A stretch of DNA of 64,000 bases from an uncultured Rhodospirillaceae bacterium (lineage in GTDB: Bacteria > Pseudomonadota > Alphaproteobacteria > UBA9219): assembly GCA_964517415.1 (NCBI GenBank), contig CAZFCA010000001.1, forward strand, positions 54,969 through 118,968, in the 5' to 3' direction. Made by a program: the position numbers and the translations under genes. The notes below the pieces were generated by a model. That model made no database searches, had not been told where the DNA came from, and saw only the letters and a list, made by a program, of their open reading frames with translations. How positions within the stretch are numbered: position 1 is the stretch's first letter; each line of letters begins with the position of its first letter. This document shows positions 6,605-61,760 of the stretch, piece by piece.

Positions 6605-8040
<1,436 letters not shown>

Positions 8041-8041
<1 letters not shown>

Positions 8042-8445
8042 TGCCTGAAACGTTCACCTTTGAACTGGTGTCTCCTGAAAAGGTGCTGTTCAGCGGGCCT
8101 GCGCTGATGGTGACCGTGCCGGGCGAGCAGGGCGAATACGGCGTTTTGCCTGCCCATGCGCCGATGATCACGATGCTGAAGCCGGGCGTGATCGCCGTTT
8201 ATGCGAACGATTTAGCCGCGCCTTCGGCAAAGCTGTTCGTCGCGGGCGGCTTTGCGGAAGTCACGCAATCGCGCCTTACCATTTTGGCCGACGAAGCGAT
8301 GCCGGTCTGCGATTTGAACGCCGCCGAACTGTCCGATCATTGCAAGGATTTGGCCAAACAGCTTGCCGCTGTCGACGAAACCCAGCGCGCCGCGCTTCAG
8401 GCCAAGCATGATGTGGTTATGGCCAAAATAGCGGCGGTTGCGTAA
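8041..8445 (+). CDS. atpC: ATP synthase F1 epsilon subunit
   Basis: 134 aa, start overlaps the atpD stop (TAATG). Typical epsilon N-terminal beta-sandwich sequence. Confidence 0.9.
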
Positions 8446-8514
8446 TACTCTTTCAGGGCGGGATGACGACTGAATTCTTCTGAATCCTGAAATTCGAATC
8501 CTGAACCAATTTTT

Positions 8515-9276
8515 ATGCTCAACCCCGAAACCATCCTTATCACCGGCGCGTCGAGCGGCCTTGGGGCGGCGATGGCGGAATTGTATGCGGAACAAGGAAC
8601 GCATTTATTTCTGCATGGGAGAAACGCCGAAAGGCTTGCGGCCATAGCGGATAAAGTGCGCGGGCGAGGGGCGACTTGTGATGTTCATTGCGGCGACGTT
8701 TCGGACGCGCCCGCGATGGAGGCATGGATCAACGCTTGCGACGAGCAAAAGCCGCTTGATCTGGTTATCGTTAATGCGGGCATTTCAGCCGGAACGGGCG
8801 GCAGGGGCGAAACGGCCGCCCAAACGAAGGCGATCTTTTCCATAAACGTGTCGGGCGTTCTCAACACCGCGCATCCGGCCGCGCAAGTGATGAAAGCCCG
8901 GCGGCGCGGGCAGATCGCGATGATCAGCTCGCTAGCTGGCTTTCGCGGTTTCCCGGGCGCGCCCGCTTACTGCGCCAGCAAAGCCGCCGTGCGGATATAT
9001 GGCGAAGGCTTGCGCGGGGAGCTTGCGCGGCACGGTGTCGAGGTCTGCGTCGTTTGTCCGGGTTTCGTCAAAACGCCCATGACCGACGTAAACCGGTTTT
9101 CTATGCCGTTTTTGATGGATGCGCAGAAAGCGGCGCGGATTATCCAACAAGGGCTGTCCCGCAACCGTCCGCGCATCGCCTTTCCGTGGCCGATGTACTT
9201 GGGGATTCTGTTGCTTTCGCTTTTGCCGCAGAGATTGCTTGATAGAGCATTAAGGCTTACGCCGAGAAAGATTTAA
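8515..9276 (+). CDS. Short-chain dehydrogenase/reductase (SDR) family oxidoreductase
   Basis: TGASSGLGAAMA Rossmann motif and YCASKAA catalytic motif. Confidence 0.8.
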   Translation: MLNPETILITGASSGLGAAMAELYAEQGTHLFLHGRNAERLAAIADKVRGRGATCDVHCGDVSDAPAMEAWINACDEQKPLDLVIVNAGISAGTGGRGETAAQTKAIFSINVSGVLNTAHPAAQVMKARRRGQIAMISSLAGFRGFPGAPAYCASKAAVRIYGEGLRGELARHGVEVCVVCPGFVKTPMTDVNRFSMPFLMDAQKAARIIQQGLSRNRPRIAFPWPMYLGILLLSLLPQRLLDRALRLTPRKI

Positions 9277-9427
9277 GGGAACTAAATGTAAAAGGAATCG
9301 TCAATCCGGAACCTGTCACTCCTCCTGAATATTTACTCTATCGGGGATTTTGAGGGGGGACAGCGCGTTTAACATGGCCTTAAACGCAATTTTCTGCTAT
9401 AAAAGCCGACCTCGGAGACAAGGAATA

Positions 9428-9628
9428 ATGAGCGAACAGGAAAAGCTGAAAGAGCTTTTGGCGCAGCTTAAGGCCGAACATCGTGATTTGGACGATGCCA
9501 TCAGCATGCTTTCGGGGCGCGCTGTTCCCGATATGATTCAGATTCAAAGGCTGAAAAAGCGCAAGCTGATCATCCGCGACGAAATCACGAAGACGGAAAG
9601 CAATCTGCTGCCCGATATTATCGCGTGA
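9428..9628 (+). CDS. DUF465 (YdcH-like) small protein
   Basis: MSEQEKLKELLAQLKAEHRDLDDAI.. is the typical DUF465 coiled-coil. GGAGACAAGGAA RBS before this ATG. The upstream extension in the ORF track is probably spurious. Confidence 0.6.
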   Translation: MSEQEKLKELLAQLKAEHRDLDDAISMLSGRAVPDMIQIQRLKKRKLIIRDEITKTESNLLPDIIA

Positions 9629-9649: not shown

Positions 9650-10249
9650 CTATTTCACCACCGACATCATGCTTTTGGCGGAGTGCTTGAGGCTAATCGA
9701 GATATCCTCGTCGTCTCGGAAGGTATAGGCGCCGTAGCTGACCTTGATATCAAGCGCGCAATTGCACAGCCGGTTCAGCGATTGTTGAAGCAGAGAAGCC
9801 AGAATTTCCGCTTTTCGCCAAGCGAAGGCGTTGTCGCAGCGCATCAGCAAGACGCCGAATTCGTCGCCCGCAAGGCGACCGACGATATCGGACGTGCGCA
9901 CATTGCCCGTCAAGATCGTGGCGATTTCTTTAAGCGCGTCCGCCGCCGCTTCGTTGCCGAACTGCGCCGCCGTTTCGGCCAGATTTCCGAAATCGAAATA
10001 CAGGATACTGGAAGTGCCGCCGTAACGCTTGTCAAACGCCAGCATGCGCGCGACTTCGCGGTTGAAATCGGGGCGGTTCAAAATGGGCGATTCCTGCGCC
10101 GCCTCAAGGGCATGAACTTTTTCCTGAAGCTCTCTGTTCTGCGACTTTGCCACCGAAAGCTCTTTTTGCAAGCCGCGCAAAATCTCCCGCTGCTGGTCGG
10201 TCAGCGGCGCATCATTAAGCAGATCAAGCGGAGAATTGGGATTTGTCAT
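9650..10249 (-). CDS. Coiled-coil protein with degenerate GGDEF domain (AGDEF in place of GG[DE]EF)
   Basis: YFDFGNLAETAAQFGNEAAADALKEIATIL...RLAGDEFGVLL...IKVSYGAYTF matches the GGDEF fold with a non-canonical active-site motif. Confidence 0.55.
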   Translation of the reverse strand: MTNPNSPLDLLNDAPLTDQQREILRGLQKELSVAKSQNRELQEKVHALEAAQESPILNRPDFNREVARMLAFDKRYGGTSSILYFDFGNLAETAAQFGNEAAADALKEIATILTGNVRTSDIVGRLAGDEFGVLLMRCDNAFAWRKAEILASLLQQSLNRLCNCALDIKVSYGAYTFRDDEDISISLKHSAKSMMSVVK

Positions 10250-10457
10250 TCGGCCGGGTAATTCGTGAAAGGATAGATACGTTAACAGCTATAGCCTTTT
10301 GGTGAAAAACAGGTTAATTTATATTAGATCGAATGTTAACGTGGGCATGAAGAAGATTCCTTTGGAACGGATAGAGCTCTAATTCTTCTCATTCTTTCCG
10401 CGCCTGTCTTGGCAGCAGCATGGAACGACAGTCATAGTCAAATTGAAGGTGCGCTTT

Positions 10458-10964
10458 ATGGCTAAGAAAACCAGAAAATCCTCCCAAAACCCCGTTGTCG
10501 GCATCGTGATGGGAAGTTCCTCGGACCGCAAGGTCATGCAAAACGCAGCCAAGGTTCTGGACGATTTCGGCGTTTCTTACGAGTCGCTGGTCATGTCGGC
10601 GCATCGTGCGCCGTCGCGCGTCATATCATATGGGGGTGGGGCGGCGTCGCGCGGCCTCAAGGTGCTTATCGCGGGGGCGGGCATGGCGGCGGCCTTGCCC
10701 GGGATGCTGGCGGCATTGACGCCTTTGCCCGTTTTGGGCGTGCCGATTCCCGGCAAGTTTTTGGACGGCTTAGACAGCCTTTTATCCATTGCGCAAATGC
10801 CTGCGGGCATTCCCGTGGGCACGCTGGCCGTCGGCACTGCGGGCGCAAAAAACGCGGCTTTCTTGGCCGTTGCGATACTCGCGTTGAACGACAAGTCTTT
10901 GGCGGCAAAATTGGCCAAATGGCGTAAGGAACAGGCTTCGGCAGTACCTGCGAATCCTAAATAA
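10458..10964 (+). CDS. purE: N5-carboxyaminoimidazole ribonucleotide mutase PurE
   Basis: VGIVMGSSSD and SAHRAP motifs. Start trimmed to the ATG behind an AAGGTG RBS. Confidence 0.85.
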   Translation: MAKKTRKSSQNPVVGIVMGSSSDRKVMQNAAKVLDDFGVSYESLVMSAHRAPSRVISYGGGAASRGLKVLIAGAGMAAALPGMLAALTPLPVLGVPIPGKFLDGLDSLLSIAQMPAGIPVGTLAVGTAGAKNAAFLAVAILALNDKSLAAKLAKWRKEQASAVPANPK

Positions 10965-11034
10965 GTACTTCCAAAGAGCTTTGGGAGCGCGTAGATTTCC
11001 CTTTCGCGATCTTTTTTCCTCCTAAGAGCCTTTC

Positions 11035-11796
11035 ATGCGACAAAAAATCCTCGTTCCTGCCCTTGTCCTGTCCCTTGCGGGTTGCGCGCAATTCGACGCG
11101 ATGTTTTCGCAGACGCCGACGCCTTCCGACTTTCCCGATGTCAAGGCCGCGCCGGTGGAGGCCGTGCAATCCGGCGAAAAGGGTTCCCGAGCAGGGGATA
11201 GCCTGCCCAATATCGATATTCCCGCAGCCAATTTGCACGGCGTTCCGGTAACGGCCGCATTGCAAGCCGTTCTTTACGGCACCGACGTTCCCCTTTCGTG
11301 GGACTCCAAGATGATGGCGCCCCACCCAGTCACGCTTATGAACCTGAAAGGCGATCTGCCGACCGTGGTGGATAAAATCTGCACTGCCGCCAACGTTTCA
11401 TGCGCCTATCGCAGCGGCGTTCTGGAAGTTGCCGAAAAGCAGGCTTTTGCCGAACCGCCCGTTTCGGCTCCGCCTCCGGCGCCGATTCTGACGCCTCCGC
11501 CTCCACCGTCACCCCCTCCTGCGCCTCCGCCTCCGCCCGTGATGCCTGAGCCTGTTGCCGAACCGAAGCCCCAGCCGCGGATGGAGGTTCCTATTCTCGC
11601 TCCGCATCCATCCCTTAAACCTATGAGCGACGAATTGCCGCCCCCCATCCTAATCGACAAGGATGGCGCGCGCCCCGTCGCGCCCCAAAGAAAGCCGGAC
11701 CGCGTATCTTCCCTCGACAGAAAAGTTATGAGTTTAGGCACGATTTCCAAGGACGATTTGACGACCGAAGCCTCAGGAAGGGGGGGGCGGCCATGA
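11035..11796 (+). CDS. Lipoprotein with STN/secretin-N-like domain and proline-rich linker (first gene of uncharacterised envelope operon)
   Basis: Lipobox LSLAGC. LHGVPVTAALQAVLYGTDVPLSW...VTLMNLKGDLPTVVDKICTAANVSCAYRSGVLEV resembles an STN domain. PPPAPILTPPPPPSPPPAPPPPP linker. Confidence 0.5.
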   Translation: MRQKILVPALVLSLAGCAQFDAMFSQTPTPSDFPDVKAAPVEAVQSGEKGSRAGDSLPNIDIPAANLHGVPVTAALQAVLYGTDVPLSWDSKMMAPHPVTLMNLKGDLPTVVDKICTAANVSCAYRSGVLEVAEKQAFAEPPVSAPPPAPILTPPPPPSPPPAPPPPPVMPEPVAEPKPQPRMEVPILAPHPSLKPMSDELPPPILIDKDGARPVAPQRKPDRVSSLDRKVMSLGTISKDDLTTEASGRGGRP

Positions 11797-12908
11797 TGCG
11801 CTTTTCAGCCTTTGTCGCTTTTATGGTTTTGGCTTTCCTCGGCGGGGAGGCTTTAGCGCGCGACGCAGCTTTTATGCCGCCCGAAATGCCGTCGGTAAAA
11901 AAAGAGGAGCCGAAGAAAGAGGAACCGAAGAAAGAGGCTATCGCCCAGGCCCTTCCGGCGAAGGAACAGCCCGCCAAAGCGCCGCCGAAGGAAATCAAGC
12001 CCATCAATTTCGGGACTGCCGTTATAGGGGAGAAGGTTATTCGCGCGACGATGCTGGTCAACGACAGCGCGGACCCCATCGCCATCCGCTCGATAGAAAT
12101 GATCTCGCCGGACAACGGCTTGCAGCGTTTAAGCCAAGGGTGCGTTATCGGAAAGCCCATTGCGCAAGGCACTTCATGCCCCGTTATTTTGCAATGGGAG
12201 CCGAAAAAAGCCGGAACGCTTTCCACCGATCTTGTGATTCACCATAGCGGGAAGGTCGGCTTTACCGTTATCGCCGTGCGCGGCGAAGCGAAAGAAAAAG
12301 CGGATCCGCCCGCAGTGGCACCCGCTCCGGCGCAAAAGGAAGCGGTGGTTTCAACGCCCGCTCCTGCGCCTGCGCAGCTTGAGATAACCGCCCCTGCAAC
12401 GCCCCCGACCGTCTCTCCGTCCGAGCCTTTAAAGGAAATCGCGGTTCCTGCGCAGCAGCCTGCCGCGCCAGCCGCTTCTCCTGCCCAACCGGAGGCCAAA
12501 ATTGAAGCCGCGCCCGCGCCTTCGCTGGAAACTAAAAAGGCGGCGGCTGCTCCCGCGCCTGTTTTGCCGCGCAAACTGGAATTTCATAAATTGGAAGAGC
12601 CCAAGGCGAAGAAGATCGTGGCAGCGGCGGGAATCGACGGCGTTCTGTTGATCGGCACTGTCGGCGATAGGGCTATCTTCCAACTGCCTGAAGGCTATAC
12701 GGCCGTCATTCCCGTCGGCGGGACGCTTCAAACGAAAGCGGGCGGGGCGAAGCTGGTCGCCGTTACGCCCTATGCGGCGGAATTCGTCGTCAAGGGGCAG
12801 GAACGAACCGTTCTTTTGAAAGGGGGCGAGGCCACAGCCGATCCAGCCAAGCCCACGAAGCAGAAGAACGCTTCGCGGCATCCTAAAAACAAGAAAAAAG
12901 GGAGATGA
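11793..12908 (+). CDS. Secreted protein: KKEEP repeats, Ig/ASH-like beta-domain, Ala/Pro-rich linker, C-terminal PilP/GspC-HR-like domain
   Basis: Signal peptide. Start overlaps the upstream stop (ATGA). C-terminal IDGVLLIGTVGDRAIFQLPEGYTAVIPVGGTLQTKAGGAKLVAVTPYAAEFVVKGQERTVLLKGG resembles the PilP/GspC HR beta-sandwich. Confidence 0.45.
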   Translation: MMRFSAFVAFMVLAFLGGEALARDAAFMPPEMPSVKKEEPKKEEPKKEAIAQALPAKEQPAKAPPKEIKPINFGTAVIGEKVIRATMLVNDSADPIAIRSIEMISPDNGLQRLSQGCVIGKPIAQGTSCPVILQWEPKKAGTLSTDLVIHHSGKVGFTVIAVRGEAKEKADPPAVAPAPAQKEAVVSTPAPAPAQLEITAPATPPTVSPSEPLKEIAVPAQQPAAPAASPAQPEAKIEAAPAPSLETKKAAAAPAPVLPRKLEFHKLEEPKAKKIVAAAGIDGVLLIGTVGDRAIFQLPEGYTAVIPVGGTLQTKAGGAKLVAVTPYAAEFVVKGQERTVLLKGGEATADPAKPTKQKNASRHPKNKKKGR

Positions 12909-18974: not shown

Positions 18975-19200
18975 TCATCGCCATAAAAAATGTCAGCGCG
19001 GATTATTCCCGCCGCCAACGCACGCCCAAATTTTTGCCGCCATATTCTACGGAAAGTCAGCCTGGATCCCCGCCTTCGCGGGGATGACGTCGTTATTATT
19101 GAGCGGGAAGTACTCTGCCCGATGATGACGTCGGTATTATTGCAGGACAGTTCTTTGCCCGATGATGACTCTGCTATTATGGACAAAGCGGTTCTTCTAT
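18975..19200. repeat. Intergenic repeat element sharing sequence (AATGTCAGCGCGGATTATTC; REP; GTTATTATTG; TTTGCCCGATGATGA) with the 44.43-44.86 kb intergenic region
   Basis: Direct comparison of the two regions. Both lie between convergent genes. Confidence 0.55.
19056..19089. repeat. REP/MITE-like palindromic unit GTCAGCCTGGATCCCCGCCTTCGCGGGGATGACG
   Basis: Core ATCCCCGC-N6-GCGGGGAT palindrome with a CAGCCTGGA flank. Family members at 35168, 35213, 44522, 44703, 46535, 47698 and 55233. Confidence 0.7.
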
Positions 19201-44521: not shown

Positions 44522-44736
44522 TAATACTGGCGTCATCCCCGCGAAAGCGGGGATCCAGGCTGACTTTCCACAAGAACAATCCGTCCAGAATTCATCCCTC
44601 ACTTCCCCCCATCATTCTGGACAATTTGCGCGTCAATACCACAAGAAATGTCAGCGCGGATTATTCGCGTCGTAATTGTTATTCCCGAATTCTATCCGCC
44701 ATTTCTTTTGATAGTCAGCCTGGATTCCCGCTTGCG
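44522..44736. repeat. MITE-like composite: two REP units in inverted orientation (44522-44555 and 44703-44736) flanking about 147 bp that also occurs near 18985
   Basis: CGTCATCCCCGCGAAAGCGGGGATCCAGGCTGAC ... GTCAGCCTGGATTCCCGCTTGCGCGGGAATGACG. Internal AATGTCAGCGCGGATTATTC shared with 18981-19004. Confidence 0.65.
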
Positions 44737-52201: not shown

Positions 52202-52276
52202 TGGTGCCGTTGGAGGGATTTGAACCCCCGACCTTGGCTTTACGAAAGCCCTGCTCTACCTCTGAGCTACAACGGC
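52202..52276 (-). tRNA. tRNA-Thr (anticodon CGT)
   Basis: Manual fold: acceptor GCCGTTG/CAACGGC, D-arm GCTC..GAGC, anticodon loop TTCGTAA, T-arm GGGGG-TTCAAAT-CCCTC, discriminator A, encoded CCA. Confidence 0.8.
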
Positions 52277-52593: not shown

Positions 52594-53556
52594 TCATTCC
52601 CCCGAATTATTAAGCGGCGCGGGAATGTTAAGATAACGCATGCGCTTCATTTCCTGCCGCCCGCGTGTAACCGTATCTAAAATCAACCCGCAGGTGAGGC
52701 ACAGAAAGGCGACGATCATGAGCCCCATCGACAAAACGGCCGTCGGCAAGCGGGGGACAAGGCCGGTATTCAGGAATTCGATAAGAATGGGGATGATCAG
52801 GACAGAGGAAAAGAAGGCGAACAAAGCGGCGCAAGCCGAAAAAAACTGCATCGGTCTTTCTTCCTTCACGAGGACGACGATAGTCCACAAAATCCTGAAG
52901 CCGTCCTTAAAAGTGTTGAGCTTGCTGATGGAGCCTTCAGGACGATCTTTGTAGGGCGTCGGGACCTCGCTGATGGGCATGCGCAGTTCAAGGGCGTGAA
53001 CCGTCAGTTCCGTTTCCGTCTCGAAACCCGCCGAAAGCGCGGGAAAACTTTTGACATAGCGGCGCGACAGAACACGATAGCCCGAAAGCATGTCGGATAG
53101 ACGGCTTCCGAAAATCCACGAAACCATGCTGGTAAGCAGCCAATTGCCGAAGCGGTGCCCCAAGCGGTAGGCTTCCTTGATGTTGGTGACGCGCGCGCCG
53201 TTCACCATATCGAGCGACTCGCGCCGCAGGAGGTTGATCATTTTCTGAGCCGAGGGCGCGTCGTAGGTCGCGTCCCCGTCTACGAGAACATAAACGTCGG
53301 CTTCGATGTCGGCGAACATGCGGCGCACGACGTTGCCTTTGCCTTGCAAAGGCTCCTGACGCACGATTGCGCCCGCTTGCCGAGCCACGGCGACAGTGCG
53401 GTCTTTGGAGTTGTTGTCGTAAACATAGATTTTCGCGCCCGGCAAAGCGGCTCGAAAATCGGCGATAACGGATGCGATGGCGGCTTCTTCGTTATAGCAG
53501 GGGATAAGAACGGCCGTTCTGGGCATGGGCTGACCTATAGCTTGGATGCTGGGCAC
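52594..53556 (-). CDS. GT2 polyprenyl-phosphate glycosyltransferase (GtrB/ArnC-like) with two C-terminal TM helices
   Basis: VLIPCYNEE, YDNNSKD and VDGDATY motifs. 320 aa with C-terminal TM pair. Confidence 0.75.
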   Translation of the reverse strand: MPSIQAIGQPMPRTAVLIPCYNEEAAIASVIADFRAALPGAKIYVYDNNSKDRTVAVARQAGAIVRQEPLQGKGNVVRRMFADIEADVYVLVDGDATYDAPSAQKMINLLRRESLDMVNGARVTNIKEAYRLGHRFGNWLLTSMVSWIFGSRLSDMLSGYRVLSRRYVKSFPALSAGFETETELTVHALELRMPISEVPTPYKDRPEGSISKLNTFKDGFRILWTIVVLVKEERPMQFFSACAALFAFFSSVLIIPILIEFLNTGLVPRLPTAVLSMGLMIVAFLCLTCGLILDTVTRGRQEMKRMRYLNIPAPLNNSGE

Positions 53557-55178
53557 AGGCTTAAGGATTTATCATCAAAAAGCCTGTCCGTCACGCTTTG
53601 GCAGCCTTTGGTGTCCAATTTAAGGCCGAAATGGGACAAAGCCTCGTCACCGACGCCCAGTTGCCACGAGGGGATAAGCATCATAAAGCGGCCTTGCGCG
53701 GCTTTTTGCGCCTCCACGCGCTCGCGCAAAAGCCTATTGATTCCCTTGTTTTGTTCAGGGCTGGAGAAGTTGCTTTGTATGCGCACAAAGCGGATTTCAG
53801 GCGGAAACAGGGGGACAAGGTGGGAATAAGGCTCGAAACCGGCCATAAGGATCATAAGATTGGATGTATCGCCCAGCGGCGGAATTTGCGCCTGCACGAA
53901 GGGCCCGTCGAGCCATGCATAGCGCCGATACCAATTGCCGGGCTTAACGGAGCCCGCGATAAGAATAAGGATGAAGCAGATGATCAGGCGGCGTTCGACA
54001 TTTTTGATGGGCGCAAGGCCAATGGCAAGGACGATGAGCAAAGGCGCGATCATTTCCAGCGTCACGGCATAGCGATAGATGGAAAACATGGCGAGCCAAA
54101 CGATATAGGCGAGCGCAAACGCAAAAAGGAGATAGCGCGCGCCGTAGGGAACCGCCAGCGCGTCTTCGGCTTTCTTATTCCGGCCATAGGCAATGCGTAA
54201 AAGGGCGCAGAGGGGAAGCAAAACGTATAGTATTGTAAGCCGCCAGTCGCGCCATTCGATCTCGCCGACGCGATAGGGGCTATCGGCGAAAAGGAAGGGC
54301 ATAAGGACATAATCGCTTAGGCTATGCGGCGCGTATTGGATGTCGCGCGCGCTAGCATGCGGCGCAAGATCGGATTTAAAGATATTATTAAAGTAGGGGA
54401 ATAGCGGGCTTCCGAAGTTGGCTTGAAGGAAAGCCGCCCAATAACCCAAGGTCGTCGCGCACCCGATAAGGACTCCAAGGCCGAAGGCGAAGCTCAGCAA
54501 AAAGCCGCGCTTCCATCCGCCGCCGCAGAAAAGCAGCGCGCCGCAAAGCCCGACGGCAAAGACAACAGCGGGAAGTTTCAGGCCGAACATGATGCCCGAA
54601 GGCAAACCGAAAAGAAGGGCGAGGATGAAAGCGGTTTTCGCTTTATCCTTTTGAAGTTTGCCAAGATACCGCACGATAAGCGCGGCGGACAAAAACGTCC
54701 CGAGGCTTGTCATATTATCCCCGAAAGTCGTGCCGATTTGCGCGATGCCGCCTCCGCCCAGCATGCCTAAAGCGGCCAAAGCGGCGCAAACAAAGACTTT
54801 CTGCCGCTTGTTCGGGATAATCAGAACGGCATGCGCAATCATGAAAAGCAGGATGAAATTGAACCCCTGAACGAAACCCAGCGCGAAGCCCGCCGCTCTT
54901 GCCGGAACATGCATCGCCAGAAGATAGAAAGGCACGTCCATCAGGGGATTGTAGAAGTATGGCGTTTGCGACGGCAAAAGGTCGATGCCGTAGCGGTTCG
55001 TCAAAAACGCATAGGCGTTATAAAAATGGTAATTGCGCAAATCCCAGTTCGCGTCCTGCCCCAGATAGAGGGCGAGCAAGCCGAAGGCCACGGGCGCGAG
55101 GCATAAAAGGGCAATCGCCAAGCCACGCGAACGGTGGTTTTTGGGGGGGAGGAAAGGCAGGGAGAGCGTGTGGTTCAT
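53535..55178 (-). CDS. Polytopic GT-C-fold membrane glycosyltransferase (ArnT/Gtr-type/DUF2029-like)
   Basis: 547 aa, at least 11 predicted TM helices, overlaps the downstream GT2 gene by 22 bp. Confidence 0.5.
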   Translation of the reverse strand: MNHTLSLPFLPPKNHRSRGLAIALLCLAPVAFGLLALYLGQDANWDLRNYHFYNAYAFLTNRYGIDLLPSQTPYFYNPLMDVPFYLLAMHVPARAAGFALGFVQGFNFILLFMIAHAVLIIPNKRQKVFVCAALAALGMLGGGGIAQIGTTFGDNMTSLGTFLSAALIVRYLGKLQKDKAKTAFILALLFGLPSGIMFGLKLPAVVFAVGLCGALLFCGGGWKRGFLLSFAFGLGVLIGCATTLGYWAAFLQANFGSPLFPYFNNIFKSDLAPHASARDIQYAPHSLSDYVLMPFLFADSPYRVGEIEWRDWRLTILYVLLPLCALLRIAYGRNKKAEDALAVPYGARYLLFAFALAYIVWLAMFSIYRYAVTLEMIAPLLIVLAIGLAPIKNVERRLIICFILILIAGSVKPGNWYRRYAWLDGPFVQAQIPPLGDTSNLMILMAGFEPYSHLVPLFPPEIRFVRIQSNFSSPEQNKGINRLLRERVEAQKAAQGRFMMLIPSWQLGVGDEALSHFGLKLDTKGCQSVTDRLFDDKSLSLCPASKL

Positions 55179-55232
55179 GGGCAGAAAGTCTTATCGCATT
55201 CAGGCGCGGGAGTCATTAATAGAAAAAAGATG

Positions 55233-55257
55233 GATCCCCGCATTCGCGGGGATGACG
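55233..55257. repeat. REP unit GGATCCCCGCATTCGCGGGGATGACG
   Basis: Direct read. Confidence 0.7.
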
Positions 55258-55309
55258 CAAATATTGTTCCTAAATCTTGAATCCAAAATCCAGAATGCCG
55301 AATCCAGCT

Positions 55310-56023
55310 TTACTTTACATTCGTGCCGGAAAGCAAAGGCGGGGCGGAAAGGGAGGAGCCTGCCCCTTGGCCGGACATTTCAATCGCCGGACTGGAAGAG
55401 GAAACGGACGGCGACACAGGCGCGACCGGCGCGGCGTTGACGGATGCGTCCACGATCATGCTGCTCATGTGCTGTTTGATGCCCGAGTCCAAATGTTCGC
55501 CCAAATCTTTCATCAGGCCGTTCAGCATCGCGTAATAGGCTTCCTGCTTTTCGAGGCTCGTGGGATTTTCGGGCAGGGTCAAGACGCGCGTCGCATCCGC
55601 GCTCGCCATGGCATAGCCTTCGCGCCCGCTGGCCTCGATAGAAACCTCGGCGTGGCCGATGTACTTCACGCCTTGATGGCGCGTCAAAAGGTCGTCAAAA
55701 AAACCGTCCTTTTTGACGGATATGGGCTGCGCGACGAGCGAAGCGTCTTTGATAAGGACAATGGCGTTGCCCGTTTGTCCGGCGGCTTGCAAGCGGTCGA
55801 CCGCCCACTGCTTGATGGCCTCGGCAATCGTCGGGCTGAAGCTGTTTGCCTTAAAGACAGAACTCGTTTGCGCGCCGCTGCGGTCGGCCAGCGAGACGGT
55901 TTTCACATCAAGCGCGATTTTCGGCAGCCTCGGCTTTTCCGTGGAGGCGATAGGGGGCGGCGCGTCGCCCGCGCAGGCAGCAAGCAAAAGCGCAAAACTA
56001 AAAGCGGCGACGGCGTTCTTAAT
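55310..56023 (-). CDS. Lipoprotein (start at MIKNAVAAFSFALLLAAC), Ser/Ala/Pro-rich C-terminus
   Basis: Lipobox LAAC. The ORF track extends to 56179, but the signal peptide starts at the internal Met. Confidence 0.45.
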   Translation of the reverse strand: MKNAVAAFSFALLLAACAGDAPPPIASTEKPRLPKIALDVKTVSLADRSGAQTSSVFKANSFSPTIAEAIKQWAVDRLQAAGQTGNAIVLIKDASLVAQPISVKKDGFFDDLLTRHQGVKYIGHAEVSIEASGREGYAMASADATRVLTLPENPTSLEKQEAYYAMLNGLMKDLGEHLDSGIKQHMSSMIVDASVNAAPVAPVSPSVSSSSPAIEMSGQGAGSSLSAPPLLSGTNVK

Positions 56024-56620
56024 CATCAAAAAGGCTCCTAAATTCATGAAAGGGGCGGCATGTGTATGGTTAATCCGGATACTAAAGGCGACTTTTGAAA
56101 AGGAAAGAAGAAATGTGCCCATAAGAATAATTTTAATCTTGTTGGTGCGAAAGGAGTGAAATATTTTGTCGGGATGCATTTATGGAGTTTTTTTATGCGA
56201 TTTTCAGACCTAAAGGATAGCGTTTCGACGCTTTCTTTATGCGCAAAGACAATGCCGGAAAAGACCTTGCTGTCAGGATTATGGGTTGCTACGGCTCTCT
56301 TTTTGGCCGGAAGGGCGGGCGTTGCCATGGCTTCTGGGGATTATGCGCCTATGGCACTTTCTCTGTTGGGGACTGTTGTTGTTGTTCCGATAGCCGAAAG
56401 GCAGATCCAGACGATCCGAAGGACGCCCCTTTATATGACTGAACCTGCCTGATACGAGGCAATCTCCCGCTAAAAAGCATTGCATTAACTATATTAGGGT
56501 GAAAAACCGTGAAAAAGCTCAGAAAAAGGGCTTTTAGCAATATTTTTTTAATTATGCAGGAACCGTTTTTTAAGGTATTTCCGTTAGATAGATTAGATTG
56601 CTTATTCATTGGTTGATGGA

Positions 56621-59149
56621 ATGTATATCGGCATTGATCTTGGCACATCGAACAGCGCGATAGCTGGCATCGTCGGCGGCAAGGCGCGTGTTTTTCACCC
56701 CGCCGAAGGCGGCGAGGTTTTGCCTTCCCTCATCTATTTCGACAAGCGGGGGCATCGCCTTTATGGGCGGCGCGCGCACGATCAAGCCCTTGTCTCGCCC
56801 GAAAACGTCGCGGCGGGATTCAAGCGATTGATGGGCACGTCGACTCCGATTGAAGTGAAAGGGGTCGAGCAAACGTTGACGCCGGAAGAATGCTCGGCGG
56901 AGATTATCCGCCAGCTTGTGGGACAGGCGACCACCGAAATAGGCGGCGAGAAGATCGAAGGCGCCGTCATCACCATTCCCGCGTCGTTCAATCAGATGCA
57001 GTCCGAGGCCACGCTGCGCGCCGCGAAACTGGCAGGGCTGGAACGCGTCGATCTTTTGCAGGAGCCCATCGCGGCCGCGTTGGCCGCTATGGAGGGATCG
57101 AAACGCTCCGGCTATTTCATCATTTACGATTTCGGCGGCGGCACGTTCGACGCGGCTATTGCTCAAGCAACGAATGGGGATGTGAAGATTATCGCGCATC
57201 AGGGCATCAATATGCTGGGCGGCCGAGATTTCGACCGCATGATCGTGAACGAGATCGTGCGCCCATGGCTGGCCGAAACTTTCGATTTGCCGGAAAATTT
57301 CCACCGCGATCCCAATTATCGCCGCTTGATACGCCTTGCGCAATTGGCGGCCGAAAAGGCCAAGATTGAATTATCCTCGAAGGAGGACGCCTCGATTTTC
57401 GCGTCCGACGAGGAACTGCGCATCGTTGACCAGAACGAGATGGAGATGTATCTGGACGTTTCTTTGACGCGCGCGCGCTTCGAGGAATTGATCCGCGACC
57501 CGATCATGCAGACGATCAGTCTTGTGCGCGATCTTTTGACGGAGAACAACATTGGCCTCGAAGAGGTAGACCGCATCGTTTTCGTCGGCGGGCCGAGCCG
57601 CACGCCATTGATCAGGCAAATGGTGTCGCAGGAACTCGGCATCGCGGCCGATATGAAAACGGATTCTTTGACCGCCGTCGCCGTCGGAGCGGCTTATTAT
57701 TGCGAAGGCCGCGAGTGGGACGGCGAAAATATCAGCAAGCCGAAGCCCAAGGAGGCCGAAGCGACAGTGCCGCAGGAGTCCCGTGTTTCCTACGCCTATA
57801 CCGCCCGCACACCCGCCGAAAAAACGGTGGTGACTTTACGTGTCGAGGGCGAAGCGCCAAAGGATCGGCATGTCAAAATTACAGGCAATAATTGGGATTC
57901 CGGCGTTTTGCCCTTAACCGACAGCCTGACGATACTCGTGCCGCTTCCCGAAGCCGGAGATCATCGTTTTGTCGCCCATGTGCTGGACGCCAAGGGGGAG
58001 GTTTTGGCCCAGCATGATCAGGCTTTGACGATCACGCGGCTTGTGGCCACGGCAGGGAGCATCCCCGCCGCTCAGACCGTCGCCGTCAAGGCTCTGGCCC
58101 ATGCCCAGGCGCAGGAAAATGTCTTAACACCGCTCGTAAAAAAAGGCGATACGCTACCCGCGAAAGGTTCTGTTAAATTCGCCAGCGCGCGCACCCTTAA
58201 GGCGGGGCAGGCCGGGCATGTGAGCTTCGAGTTGTTTCAGGTCGAATATCCGGAACGCATAGACTTGAATCTTTGCGTCGGCGTTTTCCGCGTCGGCGGC
58301 GAGGACTTGCCGGAAGAATTCGCGCTTGTTGAAGGCGCTGAGCTTGTTTTCGATTGGCAGATGAGCGACGGCGGCATTCTTCAAGCCACCGTATCAATCA
58401 GCATGGACGGCAAGACCCTTGAGCTTAAGGCGCCGCGTTTTTACGCGCCGCAAGCCGGGCAACTTTCATTCGCAGGCGAGGAGGGCGCGCAATTCGCCAC
58501 GGCGATCTTGCGGCAGGGGGACGAGGAATGGGGCGATCTGGCCGCGGCCGTCGGCCCCGATGGCGGACCCGAATTGCAACTTCTTAAGATGCGCCTTCAG
58601 GAACAAAACGAATTGATGCAGGAATCTTCGGGCGATGCGGAAGTTTTGCGCCGCGTTTCCGAGGAAGCCCGTTTCGTGCGCCAGGATATCGCGAGGCTCG
58701 GCAAAAAACATCGGGCGGCCTTGTTGCAGAGGCGACTTGGCAAAATGGCGGCCGTTTATAACCGCATCGTGCGCAAATCCGCCGGCAAAAGCGAAAACGA
58801 GCGTTTCGATAACCACGCGCGTAAAGTTCAAGAGATTATCGACGCCGGAAAGCCCGCGGCATTGGACGATGCCGATTTGCATTTATCCGAGATGCGCGAT
58901 GTTTTCTTCGCCGTGGCCTGGCGCGATCGCGATTATGTTTCGACTTGGTTCAAGCGTCTGGCGGGCGAGCCTTTCCTTTTTCCCGATCAGGACGAATTCA
59001 AGCGGATGGTGAAGGAAGGCATGGCGCTTGATCCTGCGCGCGATGCCGACGCGCTTCGCGAACTTGTTCGGCGCATGCTGTCCGCGCGCATCGCCCTAGG
59101 CGCCAGCGACACCGCCAATGAATTGGCGACCATCGTGAAGGCGAAGTAA
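56621..59149 (+). CDS. Non-canonical Hsp70-family protein (about 842 aa): actin-like NBD, about 90-aa insertion, SBD-beta-like segment, long helical C-terminus
   Basis: IGIDLGTSNSAIA, IYDFGGGTFDAAI and VGGPSRTPLIRQMV Hsp70 motifs. VFDWQMSDGGILQATVSISMDGKT resembles SBD-beta. No dnaJ or grpE nearby. Confidence 0.65.
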   Translation: MYIGIDLGTSNSAIAGIVGGKARVFHPAEGGEVLPSLIYFDKRGHRLYGRRAHDQALVSPENVAAGFKRLMGTSTPIEVKGVEQTLTPEECSAEIIRQLVGQATTEIGGEKIEGAVITIPASFNQMQSEATLRAAKLAGLERVDLLQEPIAAALAAMEGSKRSGYFIIYDFGGGTFDAAIAQATNGDVKIIAHQGINMLGGRDFDRMIVNEIVRPWLAETFDLPENFHRDPNYRRLIRLAQLAAEKAKIELSSKEDASIFASDEELRIVDQNEMEMYLDVSLTRARFEELIRDPIMQTISLVRDLLTENNIGLEEVDRIVFVGGPSRTPLIRQMVSQELGIAADMKTDSLTAVAVGAAYYCEGREWDGENISKPKPKEAEATVPQESRVSYAYTARTPAEKTVVTLRVEGEAPKDRHVKITGNNWDSGVLPLTDSLTILVPLPEAGDHRFVAHVLDAKGEVLAQHDQALTITRLVATAGSIPAAQTVAVKALAHAQAQENVLTPLVKKGDTLPAKGSVKFASARTLKAGQAGHVSFELFQVEYPERIDLNLCVGVFRVGGEDLPEEFALVEGAELVFDWQMSDGGILQATVSISMDGKTLELKAPRFYAPQAGQLSFAGEEGAQFATAILRQGDEEWGDLAAAVGPDGGPELQLLKMRLQEQNELMQESSGDAEVLRRVSEEARFVRQDIARLGKKHRAALLQRRLGKMAAVYNRIVRKSAGKSENERFDNHARKVQEIIDAGKPAALDDADLHLSEMRDVFFAVAWRDRDYVSTWFKRLAGEPFLFPDQDEFKRMVKEGMALDPARDADALRELVRRMLSARIALGASDTANELATIVKAK

Positions 59150-59243
59150 TAACGACGTTCGGGATTCGGGGAAGGAATAATCCGCGCTGGCATTTTTTGT
59201 TTTCAACGCAGCCTAGATTCCGGACAAATTTGCTTCGCAAATT

Positions 59244-59316
59244 TTCCGGAATGACAGCTTTTATATATATATCTATCTACTGGCACAATCGGCGGGGTTC
59301 CGGAATGACAGCTTTT
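59244..59316. repeat. Direct repeat TTCCGGAATGACAGCTTTT x2 (59244-59262, 59298-59316)
   Basis: Direct read, downstream of the glnA stop. Confidence 0.6.
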
Positions 59317-59350
59317 CCTCTTCTGAATCCCCAGCCCCTAACCACAGCCC

Positions 59351-60769: not shown

Positions 60770-61141
60770 TGTCCTTATGGGTCAGAGGGCGCGCCGAAAC
60801 GATAGTCGCCTGTCGCAAAAAAAACGATAAGAATCAGCGCACAAATTTTCAGTACGCTACGGCGCGGCGCGGGAGACGTTGAATCAAGAATTGTGACAGT
60901 TATGCTTTTGCGCGTTAGGGATGGGCGGGGGCACTTCGCCGCGCGGCGAGCGCGAAAGATCATATGTTAATGAAACAAAAAGGCGTAACTGCTTGACAAA
61001 CTTGCTCTCTTTAGGTTATCGGTTTTGCTATGGCGATCTGATTGCAAACCGCACGCTCGTGTTTAATTCCTATCGCAAATCATAAGTTGGGGTGATAAAG
61101 AATTGCCCTCTCCCGCAAGAGGAGAGGTAAGTGACTTTTAT

Positions 61142-61218
61142 GGCGGTTGTAGCTCAGTTGGTAGAGCCCTCGGTTGTGGTCCGAGTGGTCGCGGGTTCGA
61201 GTCCCGTCAACCGCCCCA
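61142..61218 (+). tRNA. tRNA-His (anticodon GTG) with encoded G-1 and CCA
   Basis: Manual fold: G-1 + GGCGGTT/AACCGCC acceptor, anticodon stem CTCGG/CCGAG with loop TTGTGGT, discriminator C, CCA. Confidence 0.8.
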
Positions 61219-61295
61219 GTTTTTCTACACATTTTTTAAGTGACTTGCTCCGCGTGAATTTCATATTATTTTTGAGAATTATTTCGGGAGGATTT

Positions 61296-61760
61296 ATGCA
61301 AATTTTCGACAAAGCTAATAATTATGGAATAGAGCCGAATACGCCTGCTTATTCTCTTTGGACAAGCAACGGCTCGGCAAAAATTTTGTGCGGCTTTGTT
61401 TTTACGCATTTTCCAGGATTTGCCAACCTCTGCGCGCCGTCTCTTTTTAAACTTCCACCGGATGCCCGCGTTGCGAATTCGGATAGGATTTATCGAGTGG
61501 AGAAATATGAACCCGGCGCTCATTCTTTGACGCTGAAGTCCGGCATCAACACGGCTATTGTGCTTCCTTATCGTTCTGATGCCGTCAAGCGTCCCTATCA
61601 TGAGCAAGCCGATGTGTCGCAAAGACAGAACAGTTACGTTTACGTTCTTAAAGGAGGCTTGACGCCGGAACTGGCCATTCACATAACCAGTCCTGTTCGT
61701 TCAGACGAGCCGTTTCTGACGCAAAAGCAGTTGAAGGATCTTGTGAAGCTAAGATTTTAA
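61296..61760 (+). CDS. Hypothetical protein downstream of tRNA-His (lower GC)
   Basis: 154 aa from Met MQIFDK. The ORF-track extension over the tRNA is spurious. No homolog recognised. Confidence 0.35.
   Translation: MQIFDKANNYGIEPNTPAYSLWTSNGSAKILCGFVFTHFPGFANLCAPSLFKLPPDARVANSDRIYRVEKYEPGAHSLTLKSGINTAIVLPYRSDAVKRPYHEQADVSQRQNSYVYVLKGGLTPELAIHITSPVRSDEPFLTQKQLKDLVKLRF

Follow-up and report, generated by a model that had tools for sequence, protein, structure and literature searches.

The window analysed here is a 64-kb stretch of DNA from an uncultured Rhodospirillaceae bacterium (contig CAZFCA010000001.1) containing a gene for an oversized Hsp70-type protein, named Hsp70L here. An uninterrupted open reading frame (ORF) occupies positions 56609–59149 of the + strand, with a TTG at 56609 as the first possible start. 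Translation probably begins at the ATG at 56621, since 40 full-length homologues aligned with an invariant methionine (M1) at this codon (start pattern M-Y-[IL]-G-I-D-L-G). A first-pass annotation of the window, made by a model, had placed an Hsp70-family protein of ~840 amino acids (aa) at 56621–59149, and exactly this was found, i.e. 842 aa and a stop codon. The three Hsp70 actin-fold motifs it had listed (DLGTSNS, DFGGGTFD and GGPSRTP) were all present in the translation. The G+C content was ~0.55–0.58 over the gene and the coding sequence either side, with dips only in intergenic stretches, and a megablast search against plasmids, as a test of plasmid origin, gave no match. The gene is real and strongly conserved, and its product is an oversized chaperone of Hsp70 type; its parts are as follows.

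56621–59149, + strand: complete coding sequence of Hsp70L, 842 aa, stop codon included (from the ORF, the homologue M1 and full-length homologues)
56621–57706, + strand: nucleotide-binding (actin-fold ATPase) domain, residues 1–362 (Pfam HSP70 and DnaK matches)
57707–57775, + strand: low-complexity, poorly conserved connector, residues 363–385, replacing the VLLLD linker (low model confidence, variable length)
57776–58045, + strand: inserted immunoglobulin (Ig)-like beta-sandwich of ~90 residues, about 386–475, boundaries approximate
58046–58456, + strand: Hsp70 substrate-binding domain (SBD) of SBD-beta-like type, about residues 476–612
58457–59086, + strand: enlarged alpha-helical domain, residues 613–822 (~210 residues)

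The ATPase domain was recognized directly. Pfam HSP70 (PF00012) matched residues 3–361 with 235.5 bits against a gathering cut-off of 20.6 (E 1.2e-69), and no Pfam domain was matched outside these residues. A PDB sequence search returned Hsp70 ATPase domains only, over residues 3–359, and identity to a canonical DnaK was 34% in this domain (E 4e-56). The remainder of the protein was examined with two AlphaFold2 models, one of the full-length protein built with 40 homologues (predicted local distance difference test, pLDDT, 81; predicted template modelling score, pTM, 0.63) and one of residues 363–842 built with 16 homologues (pLDDT 77). Both models agreed on the domain layout and bore out the prior prediction of an SBD-beta-like stretch after an insertion of ~90 aa, followed by a long helical tail. 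About twenty beta-strands were modelled in residues 364–608 and eight helices in residues 619–822, the first helix being ~50 residues long. The best structural matches of the domain following the Ig-like insert were Hsp70 substrate-binding domains. In a profile comparison with hhalign, residues 499–594 aligned with DnaK 405–491 (29% identity, E 0.034, 1.5% probability), and the beta region was divided into an Ig-like insert and an SBD-beta because this stretch aligns with the DnaK SBD. In the models, a beta-sandwich substrate-binding domain is located downstream of the ATPase domain, as in other Hsp70s. The canonical VLLLD linker after the ATPase domain was absent from the family alignment, where the connector varies in length; residues 16–23 of the C-terminal model had low pLDDT, and TRLVA at residues 472–476 is a possible displaced equivalent of the linker. 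The helical domain is roughly twice the size of the DnaK lid and contains a basic patch at residues 671–745 (pI 10.9 vs 5.3 for the whole protein).

The protein had been described as an orphan without dnaJ, grpE or hsc partners nearby. The absence of linked partners was upheld: tblastn with the E. coli proteins found no dnaJ, grpE or hscB in the 64-kb window, and a purpose-built J-domain hidden Markov model (HMM) run on its six-frame ORFs detected none (best E 1.3). As regards relatives the term does not fit, as Hsp70L belongs to a large family with a fixed architecture of 830–860 aa in hundreds of genomes. A word-indexed search returned >120 clusters with 58–100% identity over the full length, most of them 840–845 aa, labelled only as ‘Hsp70 family protein’ or ‘molecular chaperone DnaK’ and derived mostly from alphaproteobacterial metagenome-assembled genomes (MAGs). 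At least 542 relatives were detected in a scan of one genome per species, whose count is a lower bound. Among the matches listed, the closest (49–86% identity) came from Micavibrio, placed by NCBI under Bdellovibrionales, and from MAGs labelled Rhodospirillaceae, Alphaproteobacteria or Bdellovibrionales, and a 39–44% tier comprised Paracoccaceae, Microvirga, Dongia, Acidobacteriota, a cyanobacterium and Pseudomonadales. The C-terminal 474 residues, searched against 1.84 billion representatives, gave 287 matches at E up to 1e-3; among matches longer than ~800 aa, nearly all aligned at about residues 370–850. Pfam detected the ATPase domain only in five sampled distant members, and one architecture persisted down to 19–35% C-terminal identity (distant members include Halomonas and an uncultured Dialister).

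Mean column identity in the family alignment was 70%, with the C-terminal domains conserved equally to the ATPase domain. Pairwise dN/dS against four relatives was 0.05–0.22 for each of the three regions (ATPase, beta and helical), values that are rough because dS is close to saturation. Every domain of Hsp70L is under purifying selection. As a separate observation, one locus on a 4.8-Mb contig (i.e. L088) carried tandem Hsp70L paralogues at 7001–9595 and 9720–12200 (864 and 826 aa); a fused LpxC/FabZ gene upstream of them suggests that this genome belongs to the Bacteroidota.

Hsp70L was compared with the known bacterial Hsp70s using curated models and an ATPase-domain tree. The DnaK models aligned with the ATPase domain alone and scored far below their curated cut-offs (TIGR02350, 262.4 bits vs 822.55; NF001413, 248.6 vs 648), as did those for HscA (TIGR01991/NF003520, 215.3 vs 708.55) and YegD (NF008673, 69.7 vs 331). 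The first-pass annotation had proposed a phylogeny relative to DnaK, HscA, HscC and YegD; in a neighbour-joining tree with 200 bootstraps and the real E. coli sequences of these four proteins, with no Hsp110 sequence placed, the Hsp70L family formed a separate clade (monophyletic in 196/200 bootstraps). There was no supported attachment to DnaK, HscA or HscC, the grouping with HscC occurring in 39/200 and that with HscA in 14/200 bootstraps. ATPase-domain identity of the family was 32–36% to DnaK, HscA and HscC and 25% to YegD. Like Hsp70L, YegD is a non-canonical bacterial Hsp70-family protein without linked co-chaperones, but it consists of an ATPase domain only (450 aa). As Hsp70L forms its own clade with unsupported attachment and fails the curated cut-offs, the family is a separate branch; judged by sequence, it is an undescribed fourth branch of bacterial Hsp70s apart from DnaK, HscA and HscC, which are the only prokaryotic Hsp70 types recognized by Mayer 2021 (PMC8215388). 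A 2026 review mentions many uncharacterised ‘DnaK derivates’ and does not describe this subfamily. The view that no described subfamily has the same length and architecture was also sustained, i.e. the subfamily exists and no description of it was found in the literature.

To relate the family to its genomic surroundings, the ORFs of 87 loci, including the window, were clustered and a full-length tree was built. Taken together, the two analyses resolve a pair of sister clades within the family. The window's gene belongs to the first, a solitary clade of 54 loci, all Micavibrio-like. The second, an operon clade of 28 loci, has a patchy taxonomic distribution (Gammaproteobacteria, Paracoccaceae, Acidobacteriota, a cyanobacterium and Dialister).

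Functional residues were read from an alignment of 82 family members with DnaK. The equivalents of D8, K70, E171, D194, T199 and D201 were kept in every member having a residue there, the D8 column being an alignment gap in two solitary-clade rows. The SBD pocket retained its hydrophobic character, F426, A429, V436 and I438 corresponding to F, A/G, L/I/V and F. The J-domain contacts of DnaK are R167, Q378, D211 and D477 (Mayer 2021, PMC8215388). R167 was replaced by D in the window's clade and by G, S or A in the sister clade, Q378 by Y or F across the family (Y in the window) and D477 by Q, R or K (Q in the window), and the D211 loop was deleted. Among allosteric residues, R151 was replaced by S and K155 by L or I. 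The cleft salt bridges K55–E267 and R56–E264 were affected by replacement of K55 by H or Y (H in the window), R56 by D and E264 by Q, and ~22 residues of lobe I (about 76–101 in DnaK) were deleted.

Hsp70L is like DnaK in its domain order, full catalytic set, SBD-beta fold with hydrophobic pocket and ATPase domain (33–36% identical), and differs from it in length (842 vs ~640 aa), in the Ig-like insert and missing VLLLD linker, in the replacement of R167, Q378, D477, K55, R56 and E264 and in the shortened lobe I. Hsp70L shares with HscC (E. coli YbeW) the lobe-I deletion, a missing D211 loop and the lack of the two cleft salt bridges; such traits are tied to GrpE independence in HscC and, more broadly, to independence from nucleotide-exchange factors in HscA and HscC (Mayer 2021, PMC8215388). 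HscC differs in being 550–580 aa long with a shortened lid (PMC8215388), as opposed to 842 aa with an enlarged helical domain, and its ATPase domain is 32% identical to that of Hsp70L. The shared ATPase-domain deletions are resemblances only.

The operon clade has a recurrent layout of a gene encoding a protein of ~650 aa (i.e. C1), one of ~125 aa (i.e. C2) and Hsp70L, followed in 9 of the 28 loci by one of ~450 aa (i.e. C5); examples are L005 5990–11925, L080 7656–9997, L072 12529–13884 and L087 6630–10920, and in a Dialister locus the gene for the small protein is again followed by Hsp70L and then by the AAA+ gene. By its Pfam match (AAA, ~1e-30), C5 is a classical AAA+ ATPase, and its best PADLOC model was IetA (E 1e-28), the match spanning the generic AAA+ module only. 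C2 may be GrpE-like: Pfam GrpE was matched by one of 18 members (E 1e-4), while a C2 profile did not recover GrpE from the PDB and, in hhalign against E. coli GrpE, the C-terminal halves did not align. Judged from their sequences, C1 proteins look as if they carry a membrane segment, and some also seem to end in a peptidoglycan-binding motif. Their conserved N-terminus (NPFxxLGxSxR...AxQxLxxPxxRLxAELxWLP) aligned with a small J-domain alignment at P ~1e-3 and 22% probability in hhalign with the HPD loop missing, and the HPD motif was found in no C1 member; the evidence for C1 as a J-protein is suggestive only. As an apparent membrane protein whose N-terminus is weakly J-like, C1 recalls DjlB/DjlC, the membrane-anchored J-proteins that partner HscC, although it lacks HPD and no DjlB/DjlC-type partner is present in the window.

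None of C1, C2 and C5 occurred within 10 kb of Hsp70L in the solitary clade. The neighbours there were housekeeping genes such as rplJL, rsmB, addAB, cobST and glnA, with synteny decaying with distance, and the window's clade looks vertically inherited. In 18 solitary-clade loci, a gene for a 224-aa protein (i.e. C4) was located on the same strand directly 3′ of Hsp70L (e.g. L006 10598–11272, L003 10609–11283 and L044 8862–9566, and 15 more loci). The gap between the genes was 13–118 nt in 17 of these loci and 259 nt in L038. C4 had no Pfam or PADLOC match. It has 414 homologous clusters and is more conserved than Hsp70L, as the 120 listed clusters share 79–100% identity with the query. C4 was absent from the window and from the loci of the window's nearest relatives.

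These results are best accounted for, with somewhat better than even confidence, by Hsp70L acting as a specialised ATP-driven clamp of Hsp70 type without the canonical co-chaperones, a reading drawn from sequence, models and genomic context and supported by the Hsp70 domain order, the complete catalytic set and the purifying selection on every domain. As in DnaK, the N-terminal domain would bind and hydrolyse ATP and in this way open and close the unit of SBD-beta and helical lid on a client segment. Regulation would be rewired, with the J-domain switch residues of DnaK (R167, Q378, the D211 loop and D477) replaced, together with K55, R56 and E264, whose salt bridges slow the release of nucleotide and so create the need for GrpE, and with a flexible connector and the inserted Ig-like domain taking the place of the VLLLD linker. 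Because the switch residues, salt-bridge residues and linker are replaced, fast intrinsic nucleotide exchange is the most likely cycle, as proposed for HscA and HscC. The trigger would probably be a client or non-canonical partner instead of DnaJ and GrpE, and the Ig-like domain and enlarged helical domain with its basic patch would give specificity for that client or partner. As the gene is a vertically inherited, stand-alone chromosomal gene in a Micavibrio-like lineage, a dedicated housekeeping or stress client is expected and not general folding.

Several points weigh against this clamp. The sister clade has a possibly GrpE-like gene beside Hsp70L, though the same salt bridges are absent there, and this neighbour weakens the suggestion that no exchange factor is needed. 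Partners of Hsp70L could be encoded outside the 64 kb inspected. Sequence-level support for the SBD is weak (the hhalign E of 0.034 and 1.5% probability), the region gave no Pfam or PDB sequence match, and its assignment rests on AlphaFold2 models of moderate confidence (pLDDT 77–81, pTM 0.63). Finally, with the linker and the J-contact residues gone, the allosteric cycle may itself have been lost.

An Hsp110-like helper of the housekeeping DnaK, acting through ATPase–ATPase pairing as a nucleotide-exchange factor or holdase with no folding cycle of its own, would also suit a protein of this length. We regard this as unlikely. Hsp110 has its extra residues inside SBD-beta, where there is an acidic insertion, and also carries a C-terminal extension, whereas in Hsp70L they separate the ATPase domain from the SBD and enlarge the helical domain. 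Sse1 was matched structurally no better than ATP-state BiP and with lower identity (17% vs 27%), the SBD pocket remains hydrophobic, and the sister clade has a possible exchange factor of its own, for which a protein that is itself an exchange factor would have no use. Hsp110 and Grp170 are eukaryotic; the Hsp70L family is bacterial and forms its own clade in the tree of bacterial ATPase domains.

An origin as a sensor or switch from a mobile conflict (anti-phage/anti-plasmid) system, which may still serve defence or, in a predatory bacterium, attack, is suggested by the operon clade, with its patchy taxonomy and conserved operon of membrane protein, small protein and often an AAA+ ATPase with IetA as best PADLOC model. 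The flanks in this clade include HsdR and HsdM (type I restriction), a ParB-like protein, DUF932, SNase nucleases, an RHS toxin and a UvrD-like helicase, giving the surroundings a defence-island or mobile-element flavour, and the operon may be an undescribed conflict system. A precedent for such a context is CnuD/CnuCD of the CoCoNuT type III restriction systems (PMC11090510), here compared by description, in which an Hsp70-like unit of ATPase and SBD is likewise followed by a helical (HEAT-like) domain. CnuD has degenerate Walker A-like motifs with at best very inefficient ATP hydrolysis predicted, and is linked to the McrBC-like CnuB and CnuC genes (PMC11090510); in contrast, the catalytic residues of the Hsp70L family are invariant and neither the window nor related loci have an adjacent McrB or McrC gene. 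The window's clade also lacks the operon partners within 10 kb and shows the housekeeping synteny of apparent vertical inheritance. In PADLOC-DB 2.0, the window's Hsp70L had no match and C1 and C2 nothing significant (a Halomonas homologue of Hsp70L gave a 12-bit match, E 0.012), and the IetA match of C5 is confined to the generic module. For the window's gene, a conflict-system role of this kind therefore seems improbable. Reading Hsp70L as a filament-forming or scaffold ATPase akin to actin or MreB that merely keeps an Hsp70-like sequence is barely credible, and whatever probability remains falls to something else.

The two clades could also be joined in a single, tentative scheme, a fourth prokaryotic Hsp70 machine consisting of an ancestral module, its spread in defence islands and a domesticated descendant, which taken as a whole seems rather doubtful. 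The module would comprise a membrane-anchored J-like partner without HPD, a miniature GrpE-like factor, Hsp70L and the AAA+ ATPase, whose role would be assigned by analogy with the DnaK–ClpB pair. It may travel in defence islands as an undescribed conflict system. The window gene would be a domesticated stand-alone descendant, fixed in the Micavibrio-like (predatory) alphaproteobacteria, and the extremely conserved 224-aa protein would pair with it instead in many Micavibrio-like genomes.

The Hsp70L locus is a well-bounded example of a fixed 840-residue architecture with intact catalysis and rewired regulatory surfaces, occurring in two contrasting genomic lifestyles, as part of a mobile operon that includes an AAA+ ATPase or as a chromosomal gene standing alone. 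It makes testable whether an Hsp70 can cycle in the absence of the canonical linker, a J-domain and an exchange factor, what is recognised by the Ig-like insert and the enlarged lid, and whether bacterial conflict systems use an Hsp70–AAA+ module. These results provide an annotation and a hypothesis, not a function, and what is new is the domain arrangement of a well-conserved Hsp70 subfamily.

In the window, Hsp70L is preceded by a divergent cluster on the − strand (52594–56179) of an unnamed 289-aa ORF, a gene for a 547-aa protein and one for a GT2 glycosyltransferase, beyond which lies glmS; a tRNA-Thr(CGU) gene (52202–52276) separates glmS from the GT2 gene. The 547-aa protein had no Pfam match, and the unnamed ORF was ~260–290 aa across related loci. 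Synteny of the glycosyltransferase cluster was observed in nine related loci, mostly the closest relatives (71–86% identity) together with L031 at 59%. A functional link between Hsp70L and the cluster was rejected, as the cluster is missing from the rest of the clade, and its position was treated as inherited gene order. In L001, a GtrA-family gene adjoins the cluster, suggesting that it is a GtrABC-like polyprenol-linked glycosylation module. Two small + strand ORFs upstream of Hsp70L (56156–56452 and 56239–56442) were rejected as genes because they are conserved in no relative.

Downstream, the neighbour of Hsp70L is a convergent glnA. Further on, a 209-aa ORF (61131–61760) begins atop a tRNA-His gene (61143–61218), and at least its 5′ part is spurious because of this overlap. 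In one subclade, represented by L003 (12008–15690), cobT, cobS and a gene for a 195-aa J-domain protein were located a few genes from Hsp70L, this being the only J-protein seen near a solitary-clade member, and in L001 cobT was within 8 kb of Hsp70L. A link to these genes was rejected, as none of the three is in the window, and their proximity is probably inherited gene order.

The DNA flanking Hsp70L contains three further features.

56559–56591, + strand: conserved upstream motif (GGAACCGTTTTTTAAGGTATTTCCGTTAGATAG), 33 nt, 30–62 nt before the start codon (from the alignment of relatives)
59176–59199, + strand: dispersed-repeat core, 27 nt after the stop codon (from three copies in the window)
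59217–59252, no strand assigned: perfect-stem 16-bp hairpin (AUUCCGGACAAAUUUGC...GCAAAUUUUCCGGAAU) between the convergent Hsp70L and glnA (from the RNA fold of 59205–59325)

The core of the upstream motif was 81–94% identical and at the same position in L008, L010, L012, L029 and L034, and in L013 it was part of a longer 71%-identical match, making six close relatives in all. No sigma-70-type match was found on the + strand at 56559–56591. The motif is a candidate regulatory site, probably a promoter or operator. The alphaproteobacterial EcfG consensus is GGAAC-N16-17-CGTT; assignment of the motif as an EcfG general-stress promoter was rejected, as the window has GGAAC-N18-CGTT (one base too long) and the relatives lack both half-sites.

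The first-pass annotation also had repetitive extragenic palindromic (REP) elements flanking the gene. Upstream of Hsp70L no repeats were found, and there was no typical palindromic REP array; what survives of this claim is downstream, where one dispersed-repeat copy, the 16-bp hairpin and a 19-nt direct repeat are located. The dispersed repeat (core AATAATCCGCGCTG[AG]CATTT[TC]TT[GA]) was present in three copies at ≤2 mismatches, at 18984–19007 (−), 44642–44665 (−) and 59176–59199 (+), with none expected by chance; two of the copies share ~50 nt. All three lie on the 3′ side of a long ORF and share that ORF's strand. The repeat is not a classical REP hairpin because its folds are not consistently stable. 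Bidirectional termination is a candidate role for the 16-bp stem-loop, whose 3′ arm overlaps the direct repeat TTCCGGAATGACAGCTTTT in the first of its two copies (59244–59262 and 59298–59316); these are spaced 54 nt apart with AT-rich (TA)n sequence between them.

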